From assembly GCA_013414765.1 (NCBI GenBank), contig CP058708.1:4630748-4694747 (forward strand): a DNA stretch of 64,000 nucleotides, read 5' to 3'. The position numbers were made by a program, and so were the translations under genes. Shown one piece after another: positions 1-32,522 of this stretch. This DNA comes from Candidatus Accumulibacter cognatus. Its GTDB lineage: Bacteria > Pseudomonadota > Gammaproteobacteria > Burkholderiales > Rhodocyclaceae. The notes under the pieces are model-generated. The model ran no database searches and was not told the DNA's origin. It saw only the letters and a program-made list of their open reading frames with translations. The number at the start of each line of letters is the position of its first letter. Positions within the stretch are counted from its first letter, which is position 1.

Positions 1-370
1 CCCAAGGGTATGGCTGTTCGCCATTTAAAGTGGTACGTGAGCTGGGTTTAAAACGTCGTGAGACAGTTTGGTCCCTATCTGCCGTGGGCGCTGGAAATTT
101 GAAGGGGGCTGCTCCTAGTACGAGAGGACCGGAGTGGACGAACCTCTGGTGTACCGGTTATGACGCCAGTCGTATTGCCGGGTAGCTAAGTTCGGAAGAG
201 ATAAACGCTGAAAGCATCTAAGCGTGAAACTCGCCTTAAGATGAGATTTCCCCGGGGACTTGATCCCCCTGAAGGGTCGTGGTAGACCACCACGTTGATA
301 GGCTGGATGTGGAAGCGCAGCAATGCGTTAAGCTAACCAGTACTAATTGCCCGTGCGGCTTGATCCTATA
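1..370 (+). rRNA. rrl: 23S rRNA, 3'-terminal portion (partial)
   Basis: Strong similarity to the conserved 23S 3' domain, e.g. GACAGTTTGGTCCCTATCTGCCGTGGGCG and the terminal ...AGCTAACCAGTACTAATTGCCCGTGCGGCTTGATCCT. Confidence 0.85.
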
Positions 371-476: not shown

Positions 477-593
477 ACGCTTGGCGGCCATAGCCCTTTG
501 GACCCACCCCTTCCCATCCCGAACAGGACCGTGAAACGAAGGTACGCCGATGATAGTGCATACTTCATGTGTGAAAGTAGGTCACCGCCAGGC
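477..593 (+). rRNA. rrf: 5S rRNA
   Basis: CTTGGCGGCCATAGCC...CCCGAACAGGACCGTGAAAC...GCCGATGATAGTG...GAAAGTAGGTCACCGCCAGGC matches the beta-/gammaproteobacterial 5S consensus. Confidence 0.85.
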
Positions 594-21685: not shown

Positions 21686-22753
21686 CTAGTCGTTGAAATC
21701 CTCGAGCAGCAGCACGAACTCGTCGCCGCCCTGCCGCGAGACGGTGTCCGTGGCGCGCAGGCAGTTCTGGATGCGACGCGCCACTTCCTGCAGGAGCAGG
21801 TCTCCCACCTCGTGGCCGAGGGTGTCGTTAACCCCCTTGAACTTGTCGAGGTCGATGAACATCACCGCGAGCCTGGAGCGGTTCCGCTCCGCGCGCCCGA
21901 TCGCCTGTCTGATCCGGTCTTCCACCAGGCTGCGGTTGGGCAACCCGGTCAGGAAGTCGTGATGCGCCATGTGTTCGATTCTTGCCATCGTCCGGCTGGC
22001 TTCGGTGATGTCGTTCATCAGGCCGATGTAGTTGGTCACCGATTCGCCCGTCCGGACGATACTGATGTTGGCGTGGACCAGATACTCTTCGCCGGTCTTC
22101 TTCCTGTTCCATATGTCGCCCTGCCAATGGCCGATTTCGTGCAGGGTTTGCCACATCTTCTGAAAGAAGCTGCGCGGATGGCACTGGGAAGCAAACAGCC
22201 TGGGATTCCTGCCGAGCATTTCATCGGTGCGAAAGCCTGTCAGCCCTTCCAGCGCCCTGTTGGCAGAGATGATGAGGTTGTCCTGACTGGTGATCACGAT
22301 CCCTTCCGAGGCGTTCTCGAAAACACTGGCGGACAGTTTCAATTGCTCCTCGGCCTCCTTGTGACGGGTGATGTCCTGGAGTACCTCGATCGCACCAATG
22401 ATCTTGTCGCCGCTGAACAGCGGTTTTGCCTCGAAGGTCAGGTAACGTCGCTTGCCCTTGAGGTCGTCGAACCAGCCTTCCGCCTTGTAGCCATCACTGG
22501 CAAATTCCGTTCTCTCATGCAGACTGTAGAAGCGCGAAGCGTCCGCCAGCAGGTTGTCCAGTACCAGGTCGGCCAGGCAGGGTCTGGGCTCATCGTAGAA
22601 GCCCTTCCAGTGATCGTTGGTGCCCAGGACATCGGCGGCGGCGATGCCGGTCAACAACTCGCACGGACCATTCCAGGCCACCACCACATGCCGGGTGTCG
22701 ACCATGAATGCGGGCAGACTCAGGGCATTCAGTATGCTGCTATTCATTGCCAT
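21686..22753 (-). CDS. PAS-PAS-GGDEF sensor diguanylate cyclase, N-terminal segment ending at an in-frame TAG
   Basis: Two PAS domains then GGDEF-domain motifs (HDFLTGLPNR...RQGGDEFVLLL); the reading frame continues in frame across the TAG at 21686-21688 into the next ORF. Confidence 0.8.
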   Translation of the reverse strand: MAMNSSILNALSLPAFMVDTRHVVVAWNGPCELLTGIAAADVLGTNDHWKGFYDEPRPCLADLVLDNLLADASRFYSLHERTEFASDGYKAEGWFDDLKGKRRYLTFEAKPLFSGDKIIGAIEVLQDITRHKEAEEQLKLSASVFENASEGIVITSQDNLIISANRALEGLTGFRTDEMLGRNPRLFASQCHPRSFFQKMWQTLHEIGHWQGDIWNRKKTGEEYLVHANISIVRTGESVTNYIGLMNDITEASRTMARIEHMAHHDFLTGLPNRSLVEDRIRQAIGRAERNRSRLAVMFIDLDKFKGVNDTLGHEVGDLLLQEVARRIQNCLRATDTVSRQGGDEFVLLLEDFND

Positions 22754-23218: not shown

Positions 23219-23975
23219 TTAAGCATATGTTCTAGTAAAAAAATATCCAATTCCGTGAAATCGGCGCCTGCCTACGCGGCGTAGCTTGTCGGCTTTTTCC
23301 TTGAGCGGGAAGAACAGGCCGATGAACTCGAGGATTTGGGCCTGTTGATCTTCCGGGTGTGGCGAATGCGGGTGACGCTGACCGTTACGGCCGGTGCTGA
23401 AGAGATAGGTCAATCGTCCGAGCGCCACCAAGGCGTCGTCCGGAGTGATGGCGGCGGGGTCGTCTTCGGTGCTGCCGAAGGTCCGGTGTAGATCGGTTTC
23501 AAACCGCCGCGTGATCTTCATGGCGAGCATTGCCACGAAGGCATGCGCCTTGGTCCGCTCGGCCTTGCACGGGAAGGAAGATCGGGTGAGTTTTCAGGAA
23601 GGTGGTTTTCAGGGTACGGAAGTTGCGCTCGACTATTACAGGTTGAGCTTGCTTTCCACAGTGCTGCCCAGCACCCGCATGGTGCCCGCTTCGTCGCCAA
23701 CTGCTTAACCGTTGGCGATGAGGCTGCGCACTCGGGCAGGCAATCGCTCCCCTGGCGCGCATATCCGTTAAATAAAGGCACATTCCGAATGGAAGCGCTC
23801 GCCGCCTTTTGATGTCCGGGCGCCGGGTTTCGACATCGTGTGCGCGCAGCAGGTCTATGAACTGGCCGTCTGATGGCATGCGGCAAGCGCCCGGGGGCCT
23901 GGCCCGCTGGTGCCCGCGGGCGCATGGTTCAAAGCAGCGAGATTCTGTGCGCGCCTGCCGTTTCGGTGAGCACAA
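23219..23975 (-). pseudogene. IS5-family (IS427/IS1031-type) transposase remnant
   Basis: Frameshifted fragments PVIVERNFRTLKTTF / AHAFVAMLAMKITRR resemble the C-terminal VVERtFaWL...RRL region of IS5-group transposases; no intact ORF. Confidence 0.4.
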
Positions 23976-24954
23976 ACTCGACAGGCAGGAACTTGCCGAT
24001 CACTTCCACATTGGTCTGCAGATGCGAAGACACCCTCACCGTGGTGAAGGACCCGGCACCGGCGAGTGCCAGCGGCAGGACCAGCTGATCTGCCAGATGC
24101 TCGCCCACCACTGCAGTGCTGTCATGAAAATGCCGGGCGAGCTTCGCCACACGGTTGGCCACCACTTCAGCCGGCAAACCCTTTTCGCCAAAGGCAGTGA
24201 ACAGTTCGGTGATTTCTCTGTATTGCAGCTCAACCAGTAAAGCATTTCCTGGCCCCTCGCGCGAAGGCAGGGCACGCAGTTCCTGCTGCAATTCCCCCAG
24301 CACCCCGCCGAGCTGCAAGTCCAGTTCCGCCAGCTCGCGTTTGGCCACCTCAACGGGCACCCCCGCGACGATGGCCGTCGCCCGCGCTGCGCGCAGCTCG
24401 CCACGCTCCAGCAACTCGAAGGACTGCAGGGCCGAGACCGGACATACCCTGGCGTACAGCTCACCGCCGCCTGCCGGATAAAAGCCGTGGCGTAGCAGCT
24501 CGATGGCCATCTCCACACCCATGCGCAGGAGCAGCGGCAGCCAGCTACGGCTCAGAAAATCGAGTGGCGGTGCCGCTGGATTGTGGGTTCCGCCGCTGAT
24601 CCGCAGCGTGCTCGGTGCATCGGCGAACCACAGCGCCGGCAACAAGGTCTGCAGTACCAAGGTGCAGCTACCGGCCGTGCCAATGGCAAAGCGGTAGTCG
24701 TCACCGCGAATCTTGCCAGGGACAAAGCTCAGGGCTTGTGAACCCGGTGCCGCCCCCTGTACCTGTGCGCCGCAGATCTGCGCGGCGGCATTCACCGCCG
24801 TCAGATGCTGCCGCAACAAGCCAGGCTTGCTGCGCCTTGCACGAATTCGCTCGATGCGAAACGGTATTCCGGTAATCATCGACAAGGTCAGTGCGGTACG
24901 CAGAATTTGCCCGCCGCCTTCTCCGTGCGATCCGTCGAGTTCAATCATCTTCAT
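23929..24954 (-). CDS. rtcA: RNA 3'-terminal phosphate cyclase
   Basis: MIELDGSHGEGGGQILRTALTLSMITGIPFRIERIRARRSKPGL is the canonical RtcA N-terminus. Confidence 0.9.
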   Translation of the reverse strand: MKMIELDGSHGEGGGQILRTALTLSMITGIPFRIERIRARRSKPGLLRQHLTAVNAAAQICGAQVQGAAPGSQALSFVPGKIRGDDYRFAIGTAGSCTLVLQTLLPALWFADAPSTLRISGGTHNPAAPPLDFLSRSWLPLLLRMGVEMAIELLRHGFYPAGGGELYARVCPVSALQSFELLERGELRAARATAIVAGVPVEVAKRELAELDLQLGGVLGELQQELRALPSREGPGNALLVELQYREITELFTAFGEKGLPAEVVANRVAKLARHFHDSTAVVGEHLADQLVLPLALAGAGSFTTVRVSSHLQTNVEVIGKFLPVEFVLTETAGAHRISLL

Positions 24955-24982: not shown

Positions 24983-26202
24983 TCAACCCTTGACGCACAC
25001 CACCTGGCGCAGAGTATGTACCACCTCCACGAGTTCGCGCTGCGCGTGCATCACCGCATCGATATCCTTGTAGGCCATCGGGATTTCATCGATCACATCG
25101 GCATCCTTCCGGCACTCGACGTGGGCGGTGGCGCGCTCCTGGTCGGCAACGGTGAAGCGGCGTCGGGCTTCGTTCCGGCTCATTGTTCGTCCGGCGCCGT
25201 GACTGCAGGAGCAAAACGATTCCTTGTTGCCCAGGCCGCGCACGATGAAACTCTTGGCGCCCATCGAACCCGGAATGATGCCGAGTTCGCCTTTCTGTGC
25301 CGAGACCGCCCCCTTGCGGGTGACCAATACTTCCGCACCAAAGTGAGTCTCGCGCTGGACGTAGTTGTGGTGGCAGTTTACGGCCTCGACGCTGGCGCCA
25401 AACGGTTTGGCAATCACGCCACGCGTAGCCGCAATGACGTTCTGCATCATCAGCAGACGATTTCGCCGCGCAAAATCCTGCGCCCAGCCGACAGCTTCGA
25501 CGTATTCGTTGAAGTGCTGGCTTCCCTCCTCAAAATAGGCGAGGTCACGATTCGGCAGATGGGAGATGTGCTGCTGCATATCCTTCTGTGCCAGTTTGAT
25601 GAAGTGGCTACCGATGGCATTACCGACGCCGCGCGAACCGGAATGCAGCATGAACCAGACGCGATCCGCTTCGTCGAGACAGACTTCGATGAAGTGGTTG
25701 CCGGTACCAAGCGTGCCGAGGTGCTTGTGGTTGTTGGTGTTCTTGAGACAAGGATGCCGGTCGGTGATGCGTGTAAAGCCTTCGATCAAACCAGCCCACA
25801 TGGCATCGACACTTGCCGGTGGCGTATCCCATGACCCTTCGTCGCGCCGGCCCCGGCCCATCGTTCGCCCGTGCGGCACGGCGCGCTCAATGGCCGTACG
25901 CAGCGCCAGCAGATTGTCCGGCAAATCGGTCGCCAGCAGCGTCGTGCACGCGGCCATCATGCCGCAGCCGATATCGACACCGACGGCAGCCGGGATGATC
26001 GCACCCTGCGTCGGGATGACGCTGCCGATCGTCGAACCCTTGCCCAGGTGTACATCTGGCATCACCGCCAGGTGCCGATAGATGAAGGGCATTCTGGCGG
26101 TGTCGATCAACTGCTTGCGGGCTTCGTCCTCAACCGGAACGTCTTGCGTCCACATCTTGATCGGTTTGCCGTTTTCGACTTCGAGGAGTTGATAGTCCAT
26201 TT
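24983..26202 (-). CDS. rtcB: RNA-splicing ligase RtcB
   Basis: RtcB signatures (NCHHNYV, GSMGAKS, SHGAGR); start at MDYQLLEV. Confidence 0.9.
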
Positions 26203-26213
26203 CCGTAATTCTT

Positions 26214-26615
26214 TCACTGATCGTCGGCGGCCTGCTTCTTCTGCAGGCCTTCCTGTTGCATACGGCGGGCCTGTGACTTGCGTTCGCGTTCCTTGATACG
26301 ACAAGGCCTGCATCGTACCGCGGTCGTTTCAACATTGCCCTGGGCAACTTCGTACCACCACTTTTGCTGCGTTGCGGTCCAGACGCACTCGACGCCGCAA
26401 TCCCTGCACCGGAAAGCAATGTCCACGTAATAACCGCGTTCGATGAACGCAGGCGCCCCGTAGCTGATGCGGCGAGCCAGGCGGGTCGTATCACACCACA
26501 CGATGCCCGAAGAGTAGACGTCAACCGACAGTGGCGAGGGGCTGCTCTGAATGCGCGTCGTACGCCGTAACCGGGCACTCTTGATTTCCAGCTTGCGCTG
26601 TTTTCCACTTTTCAT
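26214..26615 (-). CDS. C4 zinc-ribbon protein with lysine/arginine-rich tails (Rtc-operon associated)
   Basis: 133 aa; CRDCGVEC...x21...CRPC zinc-ribbon spacing; basic N- and C-termini suggest nucleic-acid binding; 11 nt upstream of rtcB. Confidence 0.55.
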   Translation of the reverse strand: MKSGKQRKLEIKSARLRRTTRIQSSPSPLSVDVYSSGIVWCDTTRLARRISYGAPAFIERGYYVDIAFRCRDCGVECVWTATQQKWWYEVAQGNVETTAVRCRPCRIKERERKSQARRMQQEGLQKKQAADDQ

Positions 26616-26699: not shown

Positions 26700-27845
26700 T
26701 CACGCGCCCTTGATGTTCACCAGTCCGCTCAACACCTGATCCAGGCCACCAAACACCGAAATGCGGTCGATTCGTTCCGCCACACGTTCCAGGGTTTCCA
26801 GCTCCTTCAGACGCAGCGCGACCGGGTTTCCTTCCATCACTTTCGCGGTATTGAGCAGCGAACGTGTTGCCGCGGTTTCCTCACGGCGACGAATGACGTT
26901 CGCCTCAGCCAGCTTTCCGGCTTCGACCACCTTGGCAAGAATGGTCTTCATTTCGCCGGGCAGAACGATGTCCTTGACGCCGATGCTGCTCACCTCGATC
27001 CCGAAGCCGTTCAGCTTGCGCGCCACGTGCGCGCTGACTGCTTCGTCGATGATCTGCTTGTTTTCCAGCAGCTCGTCGAGCGATCGTGTTCCCACCGCGG
27101 CCCGCAAGCCGAACTGCAGTTCTCGATACAGGTGTTCGACTGGCTTTGCCAGCTTTTCGTGCGCCAGCAGCACGTCGGTATAGCGCCAGGTAGCCGCAAG
27201 GTTGAGGCGCAGGCCGACCTTGTCGCTGCTCAGAATTTCCTGGCCCGACACTTCCATGTTCTGCAGACGCATATCGACGAGTTCAACCAGCACTTCGCGG
27301 TTGAAGCGCCAGAATACCTCGACGCCGGGTGACATCAATCGCTGCACCTTGCCGTCGACGCGCAGAATGCCGACGTGGTAGGCAGGCACCTGCGCGATTA
27401 GCAGGCCGGCCAGGCCGCTCACCGCGTGCGCCCGCAGGCTCGGCTGCAGGAAGTGCGCTGCCAGTTGCGGTCCGACTTCATAGCCTTGCTGCAGATCGAC
27501 TTTTTCCAGTCTATGCTCGGCCAGGCCCTTCCAGAAAATGCGTCGTGACCCAGGCGCCAGCACTTCGACCAGGATCTTGTTCTCATAGCGCAATCCTGCC
27601 TCGTCCTCACCCAGTTCCATGCAGACGAAATGTTCCGCAACGGTCTGCGGCTGATGCTGAAGCAGGTAGTCGACCAGCGTGATGTCGCGCATGGGAGCGT
27701 CGAGCTTCCAGCTCTGGACCGAGAGCCGGTTCACAGGGTCGAAGAAGTAGTAACGGCCAGCGCTGAGAATGCGTTCGAAATCACCTTCCTTGAACAAGGC
27801 AGCCCGTTCACTCTTCAACACGACGAAACGCTTCAACATGTTCAT
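26700..27845 (-). CDS. SPFH/band-7 (slipin-like) domain protein
   Basis: 381 aa; band-7 core (IAQVPAYHVGILRVDGKV...NMEVSGQEILSSDKVGLRLNL...) plus C-terminal coiled-coil; first ORF downstream of the sigma54 promoter. Confidence 0.85.
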   Translation of the reverse strand: MNMLKRFVVLKSERAALFKEGDFERILSAGRYYFFDPVNRLSVQSWKLDAPMRDITLVDYLLQHQPQTVAEHFVCMELGEDEAGLRYENKILVEVLAPGSRRIFWKGLAEHRLEKVDLQQGYEVGPQLAAHFLQPSLRAHAVSGLAGLLIAQVPAYHVGILRVDGKVQRLMSPGVEVFWRFNREVLVELVDMRLQNMEVSGQEILSSDKVGLRLNLAATWRYTDVLLAHEKLAKPVEHLYRELQFGLRAAVGTRSLDELLENKQIIDEAVSAHVARKLNGFGIEVSSIGVKDIVLPGEMKTILAKVVEAGKLAEANVIRRREETAATRSLLNTAKVMEGNPVALRLKELETLERVAERIDRISVFGGLDQVLSGLVNIKGA

Positions 27846-28106
27846 TCTCCTTTGCTGTTGTTCTGTTGCCGGTCAATGCCGGTCCGCTGGGCCGATTGCC
27901 CGGCACTCGCGGGGAAGCGAGTGGCTGCCTGCCGGAGTCAGCGCTTCTCCCTTGGTGCCGAGGCACGCGGGGGAGGGCTGACATTCCTGCTTCGTCGCCT
28001 GCTCACCGTGCCGCCAGTGCGGGACAGTCGCCGACCGGACCGGCAGCGGGAGCTTGCGCATCCCGCGACCGACGGGTACTGCTAGCTTACGCTGTCGTGG
28101 AAAGAC

Positions 28107-28180
28107 AGTTTGGAGCGGGAATCGAACCCGCGACACACTGAGGATGAGTCAGTTGCTCTAACCGATTGAGCTATCCAATG
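28107..28180 (-). ncRNA. tRNA-like element (tRNA-Met CAU-like D-, anticodon- and T-arms, imperfect acceptor stem)
   Basis: Minus strand reads CATTGGA-TA-GCTCAATCGGTTAGAGC-A-ACTGA-CTCATCC-TCAGT-GTGTC-GCGGGTTCGATTCCCGC-TCCAAAC-T. The D-arm is near-identical to tRNA-Met; the anticodon loop carries CAT but pyrimidines at 37 and 38; two mismatches (1-72, 2-71) in the acceptor stem. Confidence 0.5.
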
Positions 28181-28181
28181 G

Positions 28182-28227
28182 GGGCGACCCGGGAATCGAA
28201 CCCGACGAGCTCCCGACGAGATCGCCC
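28182..28227 (-). ncRNA. Mini tRNA-like hairpin (acceptor-like stem enclosing a T-arm)
   Basis: GGGCGAT...TCGGGTTCGATTCCCGG-GTCGCCC-CCA: a 7-bp stem (GGGCGAT/GTCGCCC) closing a canonical T-stem-loop (TTCGATT), immediately 5' of the tRNA-like element on the same strand. Confidence 0.35.
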
Positions 28228-28351
28228 GTTATCGCCTTCCCGCTGTGGCGGCATGCACAGAAACGACAGACCGGAATCCGGTCTCTGCGCACCGGCGGGG
28301 TTTTGATCCCCTGCCCGTGGGCGTGCAGCGATGTTGCGACAGCTCTTCCAC

Positions 28352-28368
28352 AGCGAAATTCGTGCCAA
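28352..28368 (-). promoter_or_regulatory. sigma54 (-24/-12) promoter driving the tRNA-like elements, SPFH gene, zinc-ribbon gene, rtcB and rtcA
   Basis: Minus strand TGGCAC-GAATT-TCGCT against the consensus TGGCAC-N5-TTGCW; GG-N10-GC spacing is correct; divergent from rtcR, which encodes the cognate sigma54 activator. Confidence 0.55.
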
Positions 28369-28506
28369 CCTCTCGGAGAACCGCGGCATTGCATTCAAGC
28401 CATTGATCTGGCGAGATCTCCAGGATATTTGCGGCTTCCGTGAAAACAGGAGTGGGCGGCTTTTATTAGAATATAGAATCGATATTTATCTTTAAGGATA
28501 GTCAAC

Positions 28507-30096
28507 ATGAAGAGGAGCGTCGTCATCGGTTTTCTCGGTACGCAACTCGATTACGGTGGCAAGGGTAGCGCACGATGGGAGAAGTGGCGGCCGACGGTCG
28601 CCCTCTGCCAGCAGGAGGAGCTGATCGTTCATCGTCTGGAGTTGCTGCATGATGCACGCAGCCGCGGGCTGGCCGAGAGTGTGCAGGCGGACATCCAGTC
28701 GATATCGCCCGAAACCGAAGTCTGCCGCGTCGAGATCGAGCTGCGCGACCCCTGGGATTTCGAGGAAGTCTACACGACGCTGCACGACTTCGCGCGCGCT
28801 TACCCGTTCGACCCCGAGAACGAGGATTACCTGCTGCACATCACGACAGGAACCCATGTCGCACAGATCTGCTGGTTCCTGCTGGCCGAAGCGCGCTATT
28901 TGCCGGCCCGACTCCTGCAGACCTCACCGGCACGCAAGAAGGAGGTGGCGAATACTGCCGGAAGCTACGAGATCATCGATCTGGACCTGTCGCGCTACAA
29001 CAAGATTGCGCAGCGCTTTCAGCGCGAGCGCGCCGACACGGTGAGCTTCCTGAAATCCGGGATTGCCACGCGCAACGCCAGTTTCAACCGCATGATCGAG
29101 CAGATCGAACGGGTAGCGGGGCGCTCGAAGTCGCCAATGCTGCTGATCGGCCCCACCGGTGCGGGCAAATCGTTTCTCGCCCGCCGGGTGTACGAACTCA
29201 AGCGACAGAAGCAGCGTCTGGCCGGACGTTTCATCGAGGTGAACTGCGCGACCTTGCGCGGCGATTCGGCCATGTCCAGCCTTTTCGGCCACGTCAAGGG
29301 AGCCTTCACGGGGGCGCAAAATGAACGCCCCGGGCTCCTTCGAGCGGCCGATGGCGGATTGCTGTTTCTAGACGAAATCGGCGAACTCGGACTGGACGAG
29401 CAGGCAATGCTACTCAAGGCGATCGAGGAAAAGCGCTTCTTCCCCTTCGGTGGCGACCAGGAAGTAACGAGCGACTTCCAGCTCATCGCCGGCACCCATC
29501 GCGACCTGCGCCATTGGGTTGCCGAGGGGCATTTCCGCGAAGACCTGTATGCGCGCATCAACCTGTGGACCTTCGACCTGCCCGGCCTGGCTCAACGGCC
29601 CGAGGACATCGAGCCCAATCTCGATTACGAGCTGGAACGTTATGCGCGTGACCATGATCAGCTCGTGCGCTTCAACGTCGAAGCCCGCCGCCGCTATCTG
29701 GCCTTTGCCAGCTCGGCGGACGCTGTCTGGAGCGGCAATTTCCGTGAACTCTCGGCATCGGTCACGCGCATGGCGACTCTGGCCGAAGCGGGACGGATCA
29801 CCGAGGCGCTGGTTATCGAGGAGATCGAGCGGCTTGGCCACAGCTGGGTCAGCCGCCGGCCGGCCGATGCGGTCGCTGCTATCCTGGGCGAACAGGCCGA
29901 GCAACTCGACCTCTTCGATCGCTGCCAGCTTAACGCGGTGATCGCTGTTTGCCGGCAAGCGGCAAGCCTTTCGGATGCCGGTCGACAGCTTTTCGCCGTA
30001 TCCCGCTTGGACAAGAAAACGGCCAACGACGCTGACCGGCTGCGCAAATACCTGTCACGCTTCGGCCTCGACTGGACGGCCGTAAATCACCAATGA
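28507..30096 (+). CDS. rtcR: sigma54-dependent transcriptional regulator RtcR (CARF domain + AAA+ + HTH)
   Basis: 529 aa; N-terminal CARF-like domain, central sigma54-interaction AAA+ (LLIGPTGAGKS...GAFTGA...GGLLFLDEIGEL), C-terminal HTH; divergent from the rtcBA operon. Confidence 0.9.
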   Translation: MKRSVVIGFLGTQLDYGGKGSARWEKWRPTVALCQQEELIVHRLELLHDARSRGLAESVQADIQSISPETEVCRVEIELRDPWDFEEVYTTLHDFARAYPFDPENEDYLLHITTGTHVAQICWFLLAEARYLPARLLQTSPARKKEVANTAGSYEIIDLDLSRYNKIAQRFQRERADTVSFLKSGIATRNASFNRMIEQIERVAGRSKSPMLLIGPTGAGKSFLARRVYELKRQKQRLAGRFIEVNCATLRGDSAMSSLFGHVKGAFTGAQNERPGLLRAADGGLLFLDEIGELGLDEQAMLLKAIEEKRFFPFGGDQEVTSDFQLIAGTHRDLRHWVAEGHFREDLYARINLWTFDLPGLAQRPEDIEPNLDYELERYARDHDQLVRFNVEARRRYLAFASSADAVWSGNFRELSASVTRMATLAEAGRITEALVIEEIERLGHSWVSRRPADAVAAILGEQAEQLDLFDRCQLNAVIAVCRQAASLSDAGRQLFAVSRLDKKTANDADRLRKYLSRFGLDWTAVNHQ

Positions 30097-30111: not shown

Positions 30112-32040
30112 TCACGCCTGGCGCTGACCATTGGTGCAGGCGGTGCAGAGAGACTTGCCGTTGGCGAACAGGCAAACCCGGTCCCGACCGGCTTTCTTGG
30201 CGGCGTAGAGGGCTTTGTCTGCAGCCCGGAGCAGGTCATCCTCATTGTCCATGCCGTTCTCCCGGTTGGCTACGCCGATGCTCACCGAGATCTTGATCTC
30301 CGTACCAGCGATGTGGATCTGCATCGCCTTGACCATCCGCCGTAGACGCTCGGCAGCCAGCAGGGCCGCTCGGGGGTCGGCATCGTGACAGACCACCAGG
30401 AACTCCTCCCCGCCGATCCGGCTGACACTATCGTCCTTGCGGGCTGCAGACTGGATGGCCTTGGCCACCTCCCGCAAGACCCGATCACCCATCGCGTGAC
30501 CATATCGGTCATTGATGGACTTGAAGAAATCAACATCGATCATGAGGGCTGCCACCGGTTGGCCCGTGCGCTGGGAGGCACTCCAGAAGCGGCTCAGCAA
30601 CTCCATGCCGGCCCTTCGATTGGGTAGCTCGGTCAGCGGGTCGGTCATCGCGGCATGTTCCAGCCGCCGGTTACTGATCGCCAGCTCTGCCGTAAACTGC
30701 TTGAGCTGTGTCCGATCCTTCTCCCAGGCCTCGAGCAGCTTCACGTAATGCAGGGCCGCCCTCATTCGGGCGCTCAAGGCTCGGACATGCACCGGTTTGG
30801 TCACGTAATCGTCGACCCCCGCTTCGAAAGCCTCGATGATCTTGCTTTCGTTCTCTTCGCCGGTCAGCATGATCACATACATGGACTGTCCCCATTCGGT
30901 GGCACGCAGGGCGCGGCAGAACTCGACCCCGTCCATGACCGGCATGTGCCAGTCGGTGATGACGATCTGGGGCATGACTTCCAGAGCCAGGGCCAGACCA
31001 TCCTCGCCATTTTCGGCGGTGTGGACCCGGCAACCGAGAAGGTGGCTCAGCAAACCCTCCGTCATCATCAGGGTCGTGGGGTCGTCCTCTACCAGCAAGA
31101 CCCGCTTACGGCTGTGCTCCGTCTTTGATTCCTGCTCCGGGCGGGGAACCGGAGCATTGGCCATGGCGCTAAACGCAGGGAGCTGGGCGGTAGGCACCTT
31201 CAGCAGATCGGTCCATGCTTGCCACTGGTGAACCACACGGTCGAATACTTCGCCCATGGCCGTCACATCCAGACCGGCCTTGCCACCCAGCAGCATCAGC
31301 TCGACAATGTTGCCATGGCGCTCCGACTCGGGTGAGCGACCGAGGTCCGCCATTCGTCGTGCCTGGAAGAACAGATGGGTCAACTGATCAGGCCGGGAAC
31401 CCTCGGAAAAGCCGGAGGTCTGCGGAAACTCGTGGTAATAGACAGGCTCGGCAAGGGCTTTAGGAATGCCGCAATCAGCGAGGATGGCGGTAGTGAATTC
31501 GGTGTGATCTGCTCCAAGACGCCTGCGCTCCAGTTCCAGGAGTACTGCACCATGGCTCTGCTCGGCCAGTACCGTCGCATAGTCGGCGGGGTAGAGGGTG
31601 GCCAGCGCCAGACGGCCGATCTGCGCCAACAGACCACAGGCAAACAGTTCGTCAGGTGAAGCAAGCCGTACCATCCGGCCCAACTCCTGGCTGGCCACCG
31701 CCATGAACAGGGAGTGGGACCAGAAAGCCGGATAATCAAAGGCGGCGCACTGTCCCTGCAGATACTGGTCGACCAGAGAAAAGCCCATGGCCAGTTGGCG
31801 GACGGTCGTCATGCCCAGGCGCATCACGGTTTCCCTGACCGAGACCAAGGGCCGAGTACCAGCCGATGAAGCATTGGCGAGACGCAACAGGCGGCTGGAG
31901 AGCGCAGGGTCGCCCTGAACTACCCGGGCCACCTCGTCAATAGTCGCATCCTCGCGCCTACAGATCTCCATGATCGCCAACGCCACCCCTTTCGGGCTGG
32001 GAAGTTGGCCGCTGATCCGCAATTGTTCGATCTTGCTCAT
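30112..32040 (-). CDS. HDOD-REC-GGDEF response regulator/diguanylate cyclase
   Basis: N-terminal HDOD domain, receiver domain (RVLLVEDDP...ITDWHMP), GGDEF domain with a GGEEF active site and RxxD I-site; start taken at MSKIEQL rather than the extended 6-frame ORF. Confidence 0.85.
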   Translation of the reverse strand: MSKIEQLRISGQLPSPKGVALAIMEICRREDATIDEVARVVQGDPALSSRLLRLANASSAGTRPLVSVRETVMRLGMTTVRQLAMGFSLVDQYLQGQCAAFDYPAFWSHSLFMAVASQELGRMVRLASPDELFACGLLAQIGRLALATLYPADYATVLAEQSHGAVLLELERRRLGADHTEFTTAILADCGIPKALAEPVYYHEFPQTSGFSEGSRPDQLTHLFFQARRMADLGRSPESERHGNIVELMLLGGKAGLDVTAMGEVFDRVVHQWQAWTDLLKVPTAQLPAFSAMANAPVPRPEQESKTEHSRKRVLLVEDDPTTLMMTEGLLSHLLGCRVHTAENGEDGLALALEVMPQIVITDWHMPVMDGVEFCRALRATEWGQSMYVIMLTGEENESKIIEAFEAGVDDYVTKPVHVRALSARMRAALHYVKLLEAWEKDRTQLKQFTAELAISNRRLEHAAMTDPLTELPNRRAGMELLSRFWSASQRTGQPVAALMIDVDFFKSINDRYGHAMGDRVLREVAKAIQSAARKDDSVSRIGGEEFLVVCHDADPRAALLAAERLRRMVKAMQIHIAGTEIKISVSIGVANRENGMDNEDDLLRAADKALYAAKKAGRDRVCLFANGKSLCTACTNGQRQA

Positions 32041-32153
32041 GTGTTCCTGCTGATGGTGGCTGGTTTCTCGTTCCCGAGCAGCATGTAGTCTATCAGCCTT
32101 GCCGTGCAAGGAATCGATTTCAGGCAGCGAATGGCCTGTGCATGGGTTCCGGG

Positions 32154-32522
32154 TCATGCGGGGAGATAGGCATCTTCTTCCCGGATGCTGGTCGGATCGC
32201 TTGCTCCCTGAAGGTCTGCCGCGAGCAGGCCAGGGGGTTGCGCGGGCCCGCTTGCGGTCGGGTCGGTGTCGGCGGCCGTGTCGAGGAAGCTTCTGATGGC
32301 CTCTGCAAGTCGCCACCGGTGCAAGGCCAGCGAGGCCCCGACCTGGCGACGGGCTGCAACGCGGTCGCCGATGGCGAGCGAACAGAGCGCCTGTTCGAGC
32401 AGGCGCGCCGCTTGCCCGATCGCCTGCCGGACGAGCGAAAAATCGCAGCCGCAACGCGGACAGACGGCCGCTTCGGCCAGGCGCGCCCGACACGCCGGAC
32501 AGCGATCGAGCAGTTCAGACAT
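32154..32522 (-). CDS. C4 zinc-ribbon protein, translationally coupled to the upstream Hsp70
   Basis: CPACRARLAEAAVCPRCGC (CxxC-x9-CxxC) followed by a ~100-aa Ala/Arg-rich tail; ATGTCTGA start/stop overlap with the Hsp70 gene. Confidence 0.55.
   Translation of the reverse strand: MSELLDRCPACRARLAEAAVCPRCGCDFSLVRQAIGQAARLLEQALCSLAIGDRVAARRQVGASLALHRWRLAEAIRSFLDTAADTDPTASGPAQPPGLLAADLQGASDPTSIREEDAYLPA

Follow-up and report, generated by a model that had tools for sequence, protein, structure and literature searches.

Two tRNA-like modules in a predicted folded leader RNA of the SPFH-RtcB-RtcA operon of Candidatus Accumulibacter cognatus

tRNA-like RNAs described beside Band-7 and rtc genes

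The closest described element is the b7a-tRNA (band 7-associated tRNA), which was predicted beside Band-7 and RtcB genes by Burroughs and Aravind (Nucleic Acids Res 2016;44:8525), as cited by Wang et al. (2018, bioRxiv 10.1101/312249). In the latter paper, the b7a-tRNA is proposed to be functionally redundant or interchangeable with the Y RNA YrlA. Rfam holds no family for it. At the locus described here, the leader of an RtcR-linked SPFH-RtcB-RtcA operon carries two tandem tRNA-like modules, a minihelix (module 1) and a cloverleaf (module 2). The Band-7/SPFH gene starts 262 nt downstream of the cloverleaf, RtcB lies in the same operon, and the likeness to authentic tRNA is strong (ARAGORN call, 51.1 bits with the Rfam tRNA model, covariation). 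Compared by the description in the citing paper, module 2 matches the b7a-tRNA in context and shape, and the core finding is a rediscovery of this known, unvalidated prediction. Wang et al. (2018) make no mention of a CCA-tailed minihelix or a second Pseudomonas cloverleaf, nor of domains on the 5' and 3' sides, a position behind a sigma54 promoter or a variant with tRNA arrays and HNH genes. No published description of the larger leader fold was found, the b7a-tRNA being known here through the citing paper. Three aspects may be new: the minihelix with its CCA tail, the fold of the entire leader as supported by covariation, and the presence of this leader behind tRNA arrays and HNH genes in Burkholderiales with no adjacent RtcR.

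A second relative is PA4581.1 of P. aeruginosa PAO1, which is annotated as tRNA-Arg4 and located between rtcR (PA4581) and the SPFH gene PA4582. This is the same position as that of module 2, and the Pseudomonas loci in our set carry a homologous module pair. PA4581.1 has no CCA, and its D loop is atypical. It could be detected as RNA in P. aeruginosa, with a level that remained unchanged upon induction of the Rtc proteins (qRT-PCR of a tRNA-like RNA may cross-react). Such an unchanged level is unexpected if the RNA is made only from a sigma54 promoter. PA4581.1 is annotated as a real tRNA-Arg, whereas 'Met' is the reading of the window copy. Among further Pseudomonas copies, the readings are Leu, Ser or Arg, or a 7-nt loop is missing, and this variety argues against any amino-acid identity.

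YrlA is likewise a tRNA mimic, composed of a T arm and a D arm, in RtcR-regulated rtcBA operons, and the M. smegmatis form, with its 7-bp acceptor, is a substrate of RNase P and has CCA added to it (Chen et al. 2014, PMC4201824). A first-pass annotation of this DNA had drawn a parallel with the Salmonella rsr-yrlBA-rtcBA operon; the parallel is supported, and the analogy has already been made in the literature for such elements. The same annotation had called the elements Y-RNA-like, and this part did not stand. Membership in the YrlA family was rejected, as the score with the Rfam YrlA model (RF02553), 21.9 bits, is far below the gathering score of 69 and the architecture differs. The alignment covers positions 31-81 of the 114 in the model and links the T arm of module 1 to the D arm of module 2, with the central hairpin left unpaired. 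The tRNA-like fold of YrlA is circularly permuted, and a Ro-binding stem closes it. The leader modules, in contrast, follow the normal tRNA order, and a Ro-binding stem (paired 5' and 3' ends) around them is absent from the predicted consensus fold. No gene for the YrlA partner Ro60/Rsr is present at this locus, as had been stated at first pass; a Pfam scan of the operon proteins gave no match to the TROVE/Ro60 family.

Module 1 can also be compared with the tRNA-like domain of tmRNA and with acceptor-T-arm minihelices, with which it shares a 7-bp acceptor, a T arm, a reduced D element, the missing anticodon arm and a 3' CCA. It differs from tmRNA in having no mRNA-like part and no conserved G3:U70, and the Rfam matches to its T arm are weak. 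A 7-bp acceptor, a T arm and a 3' CCA are the features recognised by RNase P and the CCA-adding enzyme. The leader as a whole resembles the multi-domain, tRNA-associated fold of GOLLD and ROOL, bacterial RNAs of large size and complex structure that commonly lie close to tRNA genes. It differs from them in the lack of an Rfam match to any such family and in being the 5' leader of a specific operon rather than a free-standing or prophage gene.

Gene context, promoter and predicted fold of the leader

The window analysed was a stretch of 64,000 nucleotides of contig CP058708.1. The RtcR gene is divergent from the SPFH, RtcB and RtcA genes on the minus strand, as claimed at first pass (Table 1). 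The SPFH protein probably starts at the second ATG (27839, MLKRF...), as its homologues begin with MLKRF. The true start of RtcB is assigned by sequence to the ATG at 26199 (MDYQLLEVENGKPIKMW), and the listed 541-aa ORF is over-extended; in other loci, RtcB homology begins at about residue 113-140 of the long ORF. RtcB is found downstream of SPFH in most homologous loci. SPFH and RtcB seem to be separated by a gap of 400-480 nt, but an additional ncRNA was ruled out there, the interval being explained by the 133-aa zinc-finger ORF and the over-extended RtcB ORF. An AlphaFold model of the SPFH protein (mean pLDDT 53.5, pTM 0.35) was of too low quality to judge RNA binding. A phage origin was set aside, with a single relative of the SPFH gene in a viral contig collection.

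Table 1. Coordinates of genes, promoter element and predicted RNA features in the window
Feature	Position	Strand	Basis
RtcR, sigma54 activator with N-terminal RtcR (CARF-type) domain	28507..30096	+	Pfam RtcR 3e-89, Sigma54_activat 4.7e-50
Putative sigma54 -24/-12 element TGGCAC-GAATT-TCGCT	28352..28367	-	Motif match and conservation
Hairpin Pa of the 5' domain (GGCAGGGG / CCCCGCC)	28294..28315	-	RNAalifold; 6/7 pairs with compensatory changes
Long hairpin Pb, base GGUGC.../...GCAUGCC	28250..28293	-	RNAalifold and pair counts
Palindrome AGACCGG-AUU-CCGGUCU, tip of Pb	28268-28284	-	
Module 1, tRNA-like minihelix without anticodon arm	28179..28227	-	Sequence
Module 1 acceptor, 7 bp (GGGCGAU/GUCGCCC)	28221-28227 / 28182-28188	-	
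Module 1 T arm UCGGG-UUCGAUU-CCCGG	28189-28205	-	
Module 1 terminal CCA	28179-28181	-	
Module 2, cloverleaf	28107..28180 (core 28110-28178)	-	ARAGORN, Rfam tRNA model, own covariance model
Module 2 acceptor, 5 bp	28174-28178 / 28110-28114	-	
Small hairpin CUGUC-UUUCCAC-GACAG, directly 3' of module 2	28092..28108	-	Conserved position
3' domain, long irregular helix	27868..28073	-	RNAalifold and pair counts
P3a	28068-28073 / 27868-27873	-	
P3b, closing hairpin with GNRA-type loop (GCAA)	28063-28065 / 28047-28049	-	
P3c	28026-28045 / 27877-27897	-	17/18 pairs with compensatory changes
P3d	28007-28020 / 27903-27916	-	8/11 pairs with compensatory changes
SPFH/Band-7 (slipin-like) gene, first ORF of the operon	26700..27845	-	Pfam Band_7 3.1e-26
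133-aa treble-clef zinc-finger ORF, SPFH-RtcB interval	26214..26615	-	Pfam zf_Tbcl 6.4e-13, sequence
RtcB RNA ligase	24983..26199	-	Pfam RtcB 5e-127 from residue 166 of long ORF; sequence and translation
RtcA RNA 3'-phosphate cyclase	23929..24954	-	Pfam RTC 2e-80

A sigma54 promoter had been predicted on the minus strand at 28352-28368, and the element could be placed at 28352-28367, where TGGCACGAATTTCGCT agrees with the sigma54 consensus (GG-N10-GC, TGGCAC-N5-TTGCW) and the adjoining activator gene is the divergent RtcR. A motif scan for TGGCAC-N5-TCGCT returned this single match in the 64-kb window. As about 0.2 matches are expected by chance, the weight for the predicted promoter lies on its position and conservation: of 60 homologous loci linked to RtcR, about 50 carry YTGGCACG-N4-TCGCW at a distance of about 140-155 nt to the start codon of rtcR. 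Transcription would start at about 28341 on the minus strand. No sigma70-like site was found in 27600-28700. The leader is an untranslated stretch of about 480 nt (27846-28341, minus strand), and the location of the tRNA-like elements downstream of the promoter and ahead of the first ORF was borne out, with no conserved terminator in between.

Three leader structures had been described at first pass, and all were present, like the promoter element, at the positions given or no more than 2 nt away; they are, however, not isolated but parts of one fold of about 480 nt which extends along the entire leader. Covariation analysis of homologous rtc leaders, which the first-pass annotation had proposed as a check, revealed compensatory changes in every stem. 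Over the whole leader, 94.6% of the cells at 86 pairs were paired, compared to 35-48% in slid controls, and 57 pairs showed compensatory changes, compared to 17-26 in the slid controls. The same architecture was obtained independently from the Pseudomonas set, and hairpin Pa was likewise recovered in the Pseudomonas alignment. Hairpin Pb comprises 18 pairs, 12 of them with compensatory changes, with 94.5% of the cells paired. The palindrome reported at about 28270-28286 exists, but its true place is 28268-28284 and it forms the tip of this longer covarying hairpin. An intrinsic terminator at the palindrome was dismissed, given that its T-rich 'tail' is engaged in pairing as the 3' strand of Pb and that homologues show no U-rich stretch in this place. 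The stems of the small hairpin that follows module 2 covary among homologues (CTGTC/GACAG, TGCC/GGCA, TACC/GGTA). A variable region lies within the 3' domain, which stops about 12 nt short of the RBS of the SPFH gene; this RBS is unsequestered in the predicted fold.

A closing helix of the 5' domain, P0, could be recognised as ATCGC/GCGAT in many betaproteobacteria, CGACC/GGTCG in others and GACC/GGTC in Pseudomonas. P0 was seen by eye and predicted in Pseudomonas; it is out of register in the MAFFT betaproteobacterial alignment and was therefore not counted. Inspection by eye revealed no consistent register for a long-range pairing of the conserved 5' GGCCCACGGG with 3' sequences. Apart from the tRNA model, no Rfam family for the leader was found at gathering level in the window and 12 homologous loci, and the matches with E <=10 were at chance level. 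Judged from the aligned sequences, the leader is one large conserved folded RNA consisting of the Pa/Pb domain, two tandem modules, the small hairpin and the 3' helix.

Structure and conservation of the tRNA-like modules

The 74-nt tRNA-Met(CAU)-like module noted at 28107-28180 was present. ARAGORN identified it as tRNA-Met(CAU), and the Rfam tRNA model scored it above the gathering score (51.1 bits), over model positions 3-68 only. In addition to its acceptor, the module has a D arm, a T arm and an anticodon-like arm with the loop CUCAUCC. The two unpaired acceptor pairs and the pyrimidines at positions 37 and 38 were confirmed in the window copy: pairs 1-72 (C-C) and 2-71 (A-A) are mismatched, and both loop positions are C, with no purine at 37. 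Our own covariance model, R1, gave 82.7 bits for module 2 as the sole hit in the window and placed it at a constant position in 75 of 78 informative SPFH-RtcB loci of Rhodocyclales, Burkholderiales and Pseudomonas. The sequence GGTTCGANTCC occurred exactly twice in the window (0.17 expected), both times in the leader.

Across 37 homologues, the acceptor of module 2 has 4-5 bp and does not reach the canonical 7 bp. The nucleotides U8, A14, G18G19, A21, U54U55C56 and A58 were invariant or nearly so in alignment A3, and the D and T arms as a whole are near-invariant while the flanks diverge. The cloverleaf pairs were formed in 96.7% of the cells, compared to 32-46% in slid controls, and five of the five anticodon-stem pairs covary. 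The anticodon loop itself varied in length among 66 copies, with 7 nt in 39, 6 nt in 14, 5 nt in 5 and 4 nt in 8. A 7-nt loop is thus missing from 27 copies (41%), among which UUCG, GAAA and GCAA tetraloops occur. At least 12 different 'anticodons' were counted among the orthologues, and the ARAGORN 'identities' differ even between close relatives. Because the elbow nucleotides of the D and T loops (U8, A14, G18G19, U54U55C56, A58) are conserved, module 2 is interpreted as a tRNA mimic, with an unconstrained anticodon loop.

An ordinary functional tRNA gene, encoding tRNA-Met here and tRNA-Arg in P. aeruginosa, could lie between rtcR and the rtc operon by chance. The ARAGORN call, the Rfam score above the gathering score and the tRNA-Arg4 annotation of the P. 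aeruginosa orthologue would all agree with such a gene. It is nevertheless highly improbable in view of the acceptor, which has 5 bp with 1-72 and 2-71 mismatched where a normal tRNA-Met has an intact stem, of C37 and C38, and of the many 'anticodons' and non-standard loops among the orthologues. Moreover, the b7a-type element scores 40-51 bits with the Rfam tRNA model, whereas canonical tRNAs from the arrays nearby reach 50-63 bits, and PA4581.1 departs from a tRNA in its 3' end and D loop. The earlier suspicion that module 2 is probably not a chargeable tRNA is supported in the sense of a non-decoding element, considering the 5-bp acceptor, the free anticodon and the copies with shortened loops.

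The mini tRNA-like hairpin reported at 28182-28227, a 7-bp acceptor-like stem with a T arm, was confirmed in the sequence as module 1, which additionally contains a short D-like hairpin with a GG loop. In most loci parsed, its acceptor retains 6-7 bp while the sequences vary widely, the 5' strand being the best complement within about 60 nt upstream, chosen with no shuffled control. A CCA follows module 1 in 26 of 47 non-Pseudomonas loci and in 0 of 17 Pseudomonas loci; in Pseudomonas, module 1 is a full cloverleaf. No constant aminoacylation identity, including G3:U70, was present in module 1 across the loci parsed. Neither module is predicted to decode, and both seem to mimic the shape of tRNA.

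Distribution among homologous loci and possible roles

The leader with both tRNA-like modules is also present in Burkholderiales loci with no RtcR gene or sigma54 motif nearby, where it lies downstream of tRNA arrays (up to 13 canonical tRNAs) and an HNH gene. Judged by this distribution, the tRNA-like RNA follows the SPFH gene and not RtcR, and a sensing role specific to RtcR and its CARF domain is weakened because these loci carry the leader without RtcR. The Pseudomonas loci L047 and L053 have kept the scaffold and lost both tRNA-like modules; the modules are therefore dispensable in some lineages. In L029, a damaged-looking hybrid of module 1 and module 2 was found. These damaged or missing copies, together with the tRNA arrays nearby in some Burkholderiales, would fit functionless, decaying tRNA pseudogenes left as relics of an integration site or array. 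This reading is strongly disfavoured, since the modules are found at a single position in beta- and gammaproteobacteria alike, compensatory changes affect all of the stems, and the D and T arms are near-invariant against diverging flanks.

The main reading, to which we assign a probability of about 0.5, is that the leader of about 480 nt of this RtcR/sigma54-controlled SPFH-zinc finger-RtcB-RtcA operon yields a tRNA-like RNA partner of SPFH and RtcB. Upon induction, the transcript would be cut by tRNA-processing enzymes, with RNase P cleaving 5' of G28227 and 3' trimming halting at the CCA at 28179, and one or more stable tRNA-like RNAs would be freed. The freed RNAs may then serve as a partner or scaffold for the co-encoded SPFH protein and RtcB ligase in the repair of cleaved tRNA, by a logic analogous to that of YrlA with Ro60 in the Salmonella rsr-yrlBA-rtcBA operon.

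Alternatively, the RNA could remain on the mRNA as a cis-acting leader which controls the stability or translation of SPFH, RtcB and RtcA, with the modules reporting tRNA damage or the availability of tRNA enzymes. In this case, tRNA nucleases would cut the modules and RtcB would re-seal them, which may provide feedback or 2',3'-cyclic-phosphate fragments for the RtcR CARF domain; activation of RtcR by tRNA fragments has been reported (Hughes et al. 2020). The predicted structure is continuous from near the inferred start to about 12 nt before the RBS, no terminator precedes the ORF, and the scaffold survives where the modules are lost (L047, L053). The fold near the RBS suits cis control at least as well as it suits a released RNA. 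However, the RBS is not sequestered in the predicted fold, and the same RNA occurs behind the HNH gene where neither RtcR nor a sigma54 motif lies in the vicinity. The variable anticodon loops, tetraloops included, would also be a poor bait for anticodon-specific nucleases, and the tRNA-like YrlA of Salmonella was not cut by the inducing nuclease. Cis control is regarded as unlikely.

As a decoy or competitive inhibitor, modules over-produced upon induction could bind tRNA-targeting toxins or nucleases directed at the body of the tRNA or its CCA end, and real tRNAs would be spared. In favour of this reading, conservation falls on the nucleotides of the elbow, on the minihelix of acceptor and T arm and on the CCA. 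We consider a decoy distinctly improbable, as one or two copies per inducible transcript are small compared to the cellular tRNA pool, the strict linkage to SPFH would be left unexplained, and the CCA is missing in Pseudomonas.

A related proposal, which we hold tentatively and at somewhat short of even odds, concerns the leader as a whole. The tRNA-like piece may be just one part of a larger, hitherto undescribed RNA of about 450-500 nt, which is always located before the SPFH gene of RtcB operons and shows covariation-backed conservation in Rhodocyclales, Burkholderiales and Pseudomonas. In that case, the RNA would be a dedicated component, as scaffold or sensor, of a tRNA-repair particle formed by SPFH and RtcB, and the arrays in the Burkholderiales loci could represent a linked supply of 'spare' tRNAs.

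For bacterial RtcB operons, whose substrates and cofactors are poorly characterised, a conserved RNA of tRNA shape that is encoded together with the ligase and an SPFH protein provides a candidate RNA partner open to experimental testing, comparable to the Y RNA of Ro60. The covariation-supported fold offers defined helices for mutation, and culturable carriers are available in P. aeruginosa PAO1 and PA14, Burkholderia, Ralstonia and Dechloromonas. Such elements are annotated as ordinary tRNAs (tRNA-Met here, tRNA-Arg4 in P. aeruginosa) and, because of the comparative data on anticodon loops and acceptors, should stay out of the decoding set of the genome.

Organization of the rtc locus

Pfam analysis revealed that rtcR is divergent from an operon encoding an SPFH/Band_7 protein, a treble-clef zinc-finger protein, RtcB and RtcA. 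The 541-aa ORF of RtcB (24983–26608, −) was about 136 codons too long, overlapping the zinc-finger gene in a different frame, and the start was placed at ATG 26199 (MDYQLLEVENGKPIKMW). The 133-aa zinc-finger protein is possibly a nucleic-acid-binding member of the operon. The 135-aa ORF directly 3′ of RtcA had no Pfam match and may be an additional member, comparable to PA4584 of P. aeruginosa, although that gene sits between rtcB and rtcA. No TROVE/Ro60 domain could be detected in the operon proteins with Pfam, in agreement with the first-pass annotation, which had noted that a Ro60 gene was absent. Its sigma54 element, palindrome, minihelix and cloverleaf were likewise all present between rtcR and the first ORF. 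Transcription would start near 28341 under RtcR and sigma54.

Residues 1–50 of the SPFH protein (FVVKKNERGxLLRDGxFERIL.AGRHYFFDP) looked like a repeat of the opening beta-strands of an SPFH domain, an observation covering residues 1–50 and 148–191, and they were the sole confidently modelled part of the predicted structure (pLDDT 80–90). No transmembrane segment was evident in the protein, which may be soluble, unusual for this family. The locus is flanked on both sides by c-di-GMP signalling genes, encoding response-regulator-HDOD-GGDEF and PAS-GGDEF proteins, and the window starts inside an rRNA operon.

Coordinates of features in the window and in selected homologous loci (locus number: positions within the fetched stretch)
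Feature	Position	Strand	Remark
23S rRNA, 3′ end	1–367	+	
5S rRNA	480–593	+	
c-di-GMP signalling gene	21686–22753	−	
135-aa ORF	23518–23925	−	
RtcB	24983–26199	−	Pfam
Zinc-finger ORF, 133 aa	26214–26615	−	Pfam zf_Tbcl, 6.4e-13; between SPFH and RtcB
SPFH/Band_7 gene	26700–27845	−	Pfam; first ORF of operon
3′ domain of leader	27868–28073	−	
Module 2 (b7a-tRNA cloverleaf)	28107–28180	−	
Module 1 (tRNA-like minihelix)	28179–28227	−	acceptor/T-arm minihelix 28182–28227; CCA 28179–28181
Hairpin Pb	28250–28293	−	
Palindrome AGACCGG-AUU-CCGGUCU	28268–28284	−	tip of Pb
Hairpin Pa	28294–28315	−	
Sigma54-type element TGGCAC-GAATT-TCGCT	28352–28367	−	single pattern match in window
RtcR	28507–30096	+	Pfam
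c-di-GMP signalling gene	30112–32493	−	
HNH endonuclease gene (example)	L074:2356–2928		
tRNA arrays	L074:635–2313; L080:404–1200; L062:153–2031; L066:1805–2348; L071:1966–2307; L075:1726–2342; L076:65–511		13 tRNAs in L074
Leaders with unrelated hairpins	L047:3056–3500; L053:3070–3500		Pseudomonas aegrilactucae; P. donghuensis
Leader with hybrid element	L029:2104–2542		
Weak b7a-tRNA model match	L032:2904–2977		31.4 bits; Zoogloeaceae MAG
Three canonical tRNAs	L079:2618–2861		Asn, Ile, Pro

Two tRNA-like modules within a larger fold

ARAGORN called module 2, the b7a-tRNA (tRNA associated with band 7) cloverleaf, as tRNA-Met(CAU), which was the sole tRNA call in the 64-kb window. The Rfam tRNA model scored 51.1 bits over model positions 3–68 only, since pairs 1–72 (C-C) and 2–71 (A-A) were unformed; positions 37 and 38 were both C. 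The T-loop word GGTTCGANTCC occurred twice in the window against 0.17 expected, both times in the leader. A genome scan with the SPFH protein, whose close relatives number in thousands, provided 80 loci from Rhodocyclales, Burkholderiales and Pseudomonas, the nearest being from Candidatus Accumulibacter (96% identity). In most loci ARAGORN reported a "tRNA" 250–400 nt upstream of SPFH, the identity of which changed nearly every time (including Met, Ile, Thr, Val, Leu, Arg, Ser, Asn, Phe, Lys and Pro), and many calls were undetermined, with "anticodons" of 2 or 4 nt.

A covariance model built from 37 copies of module 2 had a hit where one was expected in 75 of the 80 loci; the five misses consisted of two loci without upstream DNA and three true absences (L047, L053 and L079). 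The model found two tandem copies in 17 Pseudomonas-type loci and exactly one match in the window (82.7 bits). In the 37-sequence alignment the cloverleaf was 96.7% paired, compared to 32–46% when the pairing partners were slid, with compensatory changes in 10 of 19 pairs and covariation in all five pairs of the anticodon stem. The D arm, T arm and elbow nucleotides (U8, A14, G18G19, A21, U54U55C56, A58) were invariant or nearly so. The acceptor was just 4–5 bp across copies (YUGGA/UCCAR or UUCGA/UCGAA), and the anticodon loop was free to vary: among 66 parsed copies, loops of 7, 6, 5 and 4 nt occurred in 39, 14, 5 and 8 copies, respectively, UUCG, GAAA and GCAA tetraloops being among them. 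No normal tRNA-Met with a high score and an unbroken acceptor stem, which would have contradicted the first-pass annotation, was found. Module 2 is a tRNA mimic, not a decoding tRNA.

Module 1 had no anticodon arm and is also a non-decoding tRNA mimic. Its acceptor stem was 6–7 bp in most parsed loci with very different sequences (GGGCGAU/GUCGCCC, GUGCGAG/CUCGCAC, CGACGUU/AACGUCG, GGUGAUG/CAUCACC, CGUGUAA/UUACACG), the 5′ strand being the best complement upstream, chosen without a shuffled control. A short hairpin with a conserved GG in its D-loop-like loop lay between this strand and the T arm. Of 47 non-Pseudomonas loci, 26 had CCA immediately after the 3′ strand of the acceptor, and several others had CCU there; in the window, the final two bases of CCA were the unpaired "positions 1–2" of the ARAGORN tRNA. 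Pseudomonas had a full cloverleaf as module 1, with an acceptor of 7 bp and lacking CCA. RNase P and the CCA-adding enzyme classically act on a 7-bp acceptor that is stacked on a T arm and followed by CCA. Cutting by RNase P and the addition of CCA were demonstrated for M. smegmatis YrlA, whose "acceptor" is 7 bp long (Chen et al. 2014, PMC4201824), and module 1 may be processed similarly.

Leaders of 25 betaproteobacterial loci, taken between the −12 element and the start codon of SPFH, were aligned and showed conserved blocks along the whole length. RNAalifold predicted Pa, Pb, the T arm of module 1, the cloverleaf of module 2 and a long 3′ domain of four helices around a variable region. 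This structure had 94.6% paired cells, compared to 35–48% in the slid control, and compensatory changes in 57 of 86 pairs, compared to 17–26, although the control somewhat favours the fold, which had been predicted on this very alignment; none of 500 shuffles reached the observed values. A separate alignment of 15 Pseudomonas leaders gave the same architecture with additional closing helices around Pa and Pb. Rfam had no family for any leader part except tRNA. The apparent terminator at the palindrome was rejected as an artefact, its "U tail", which was not conserved, being a paired strand of Pb. These comparisons suggest that the b7a-tRNA-type element belongs to a structured RNA much larger than any described in the available literature. 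Some 12 nt separate the end of the 3′ domain from the GGAG of the ribosome-binding site of SPFH, and a fold extending up to this site favours the main rival explanation, that the RNA is a cis-regulatory leader. Further rivals considered were a decoy, a genuine tRNA and a pseudogene.

Linkage and variation among homologous loci

RtcR was divergent and upstream in about 60 of the 80 loci, and RtcB was downstream in most. About 50 of the approximately 60 RtcR-linked loci had the sigma54 motif YTGGCACG-N4-TCGCW at a constant distance from rtcR. In contrast, 13 Burkholderiales loci (Piscinibacter, Rubrivivax, Ramlibacter, Roseateles, Ideonella and relatives) without adjacent RtcR or sigma54 motif shared the leader of Pa-Pb, minihelix-(A)CCA and b7a-tRNA, which speaks against a function specific to RtcR sensing. 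There, the leader and SPFH-RtcB operon lay directly 3′ of a 190-aa HNH endonuclease gene. The first-pass reading was supported in part: the elements are tRNA mimics in a sigma54-driven leader, but they are linked to SPFH rather than RtcR. Several HNH-linked loci carried 3–13 canonical tRNA genes of differing identity upstream on the same strand (Rfam 50–63 bits), which could be a "spare tRNA" supply tied to the RNA-repair operon.

Short unrelated hairpins replaced both modules in two Pseudomonas species, which retained the sigma54 motif, Pa, Pb, small hairpin and 3′ domain. The scaffold can thus be present where the tRNA mimics are missing, a further point for a cis-regulatory leader. Another locus (L029) had one tRNA-like element with mismatched acceptor strands, apparently joining the 5′ half of module 1 (GGCTCGGTAGCTCAG...) to the 3′ half of module 2 (...CCCGCTCGAAAA). 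It probably arose through a recombination deletion between the D arms of the tandem modules, or else through faulty assembly of the MAG. The weak match in L032 was downstream of the SPFH gene, and no RtcB match was present within the fetched stretch. L079, with canonical tRNAs about 640 nt upstream of SPFH, was the only non-Pseudomonas locus in which a b7a-type element was undetected despite enough upstream DNA.

Relation to known RNAs

In 2016, Burroughs and Aravind reportedly assigned a cognate RNA, "a novel tRNA-like molecule", to SPFH/Band-7 modules. The P. aeruginosa orthologue is annotated as tRNA-Arg4 (PA4581.1), between rtcR (PA4581) and PA4582–PA4585, PA4582 being the SPFH protein "PaFlo8" within the rtc locus. 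According to a 2026 paper, PA4581.1 has no CCA and an atypical D loop, and by qRT-PCR its level was about half that of canonical tRNAs and unchanged on Rtc protein induction; in a separate study it was among the most up-regulated genes of a late cystic-fibrosis isolate. The b7a-tRNA predicted by Burroughs and Aravind is described as lacking experimental validation and as possibly redundant with YrlA (Wang et al. 2018, bioRxiv 10.1101/312249). Given this prediction and the annotated orthologue, the central finding is a rediscovery.

The first-pass annotation had also regarded the elements as Y-RNA-like. The Rfam YrlA model scored 21.9 bits, below its gathering score of 69, aligning with the module 1 T arm and module 2 D arm and leaving the intervening YrlA hairpin unpaired; this partial alignment reflects the permuted YrlA order (T arm, closed acceptor, D arm) and not membership. 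Unlike YrlA, the leader has no terminal Ro-binding stem, and the operon no Ro60 gene, so the identification as a Y RNA was unsupported. That the leader RNA works like YrlA is a reasonable hypothesis, and the idea already appears in the literature.

This analysis established a conserved fold, a promoter motif, linkage to SPFH and RtcB, and modules that do not decode. The leader RNA may act in trans as an RNA partner of SPFH and RtcB. The RNA is genuine and conserved, and the window contributes an Accumulibacter-type member of b7a-tRNA.
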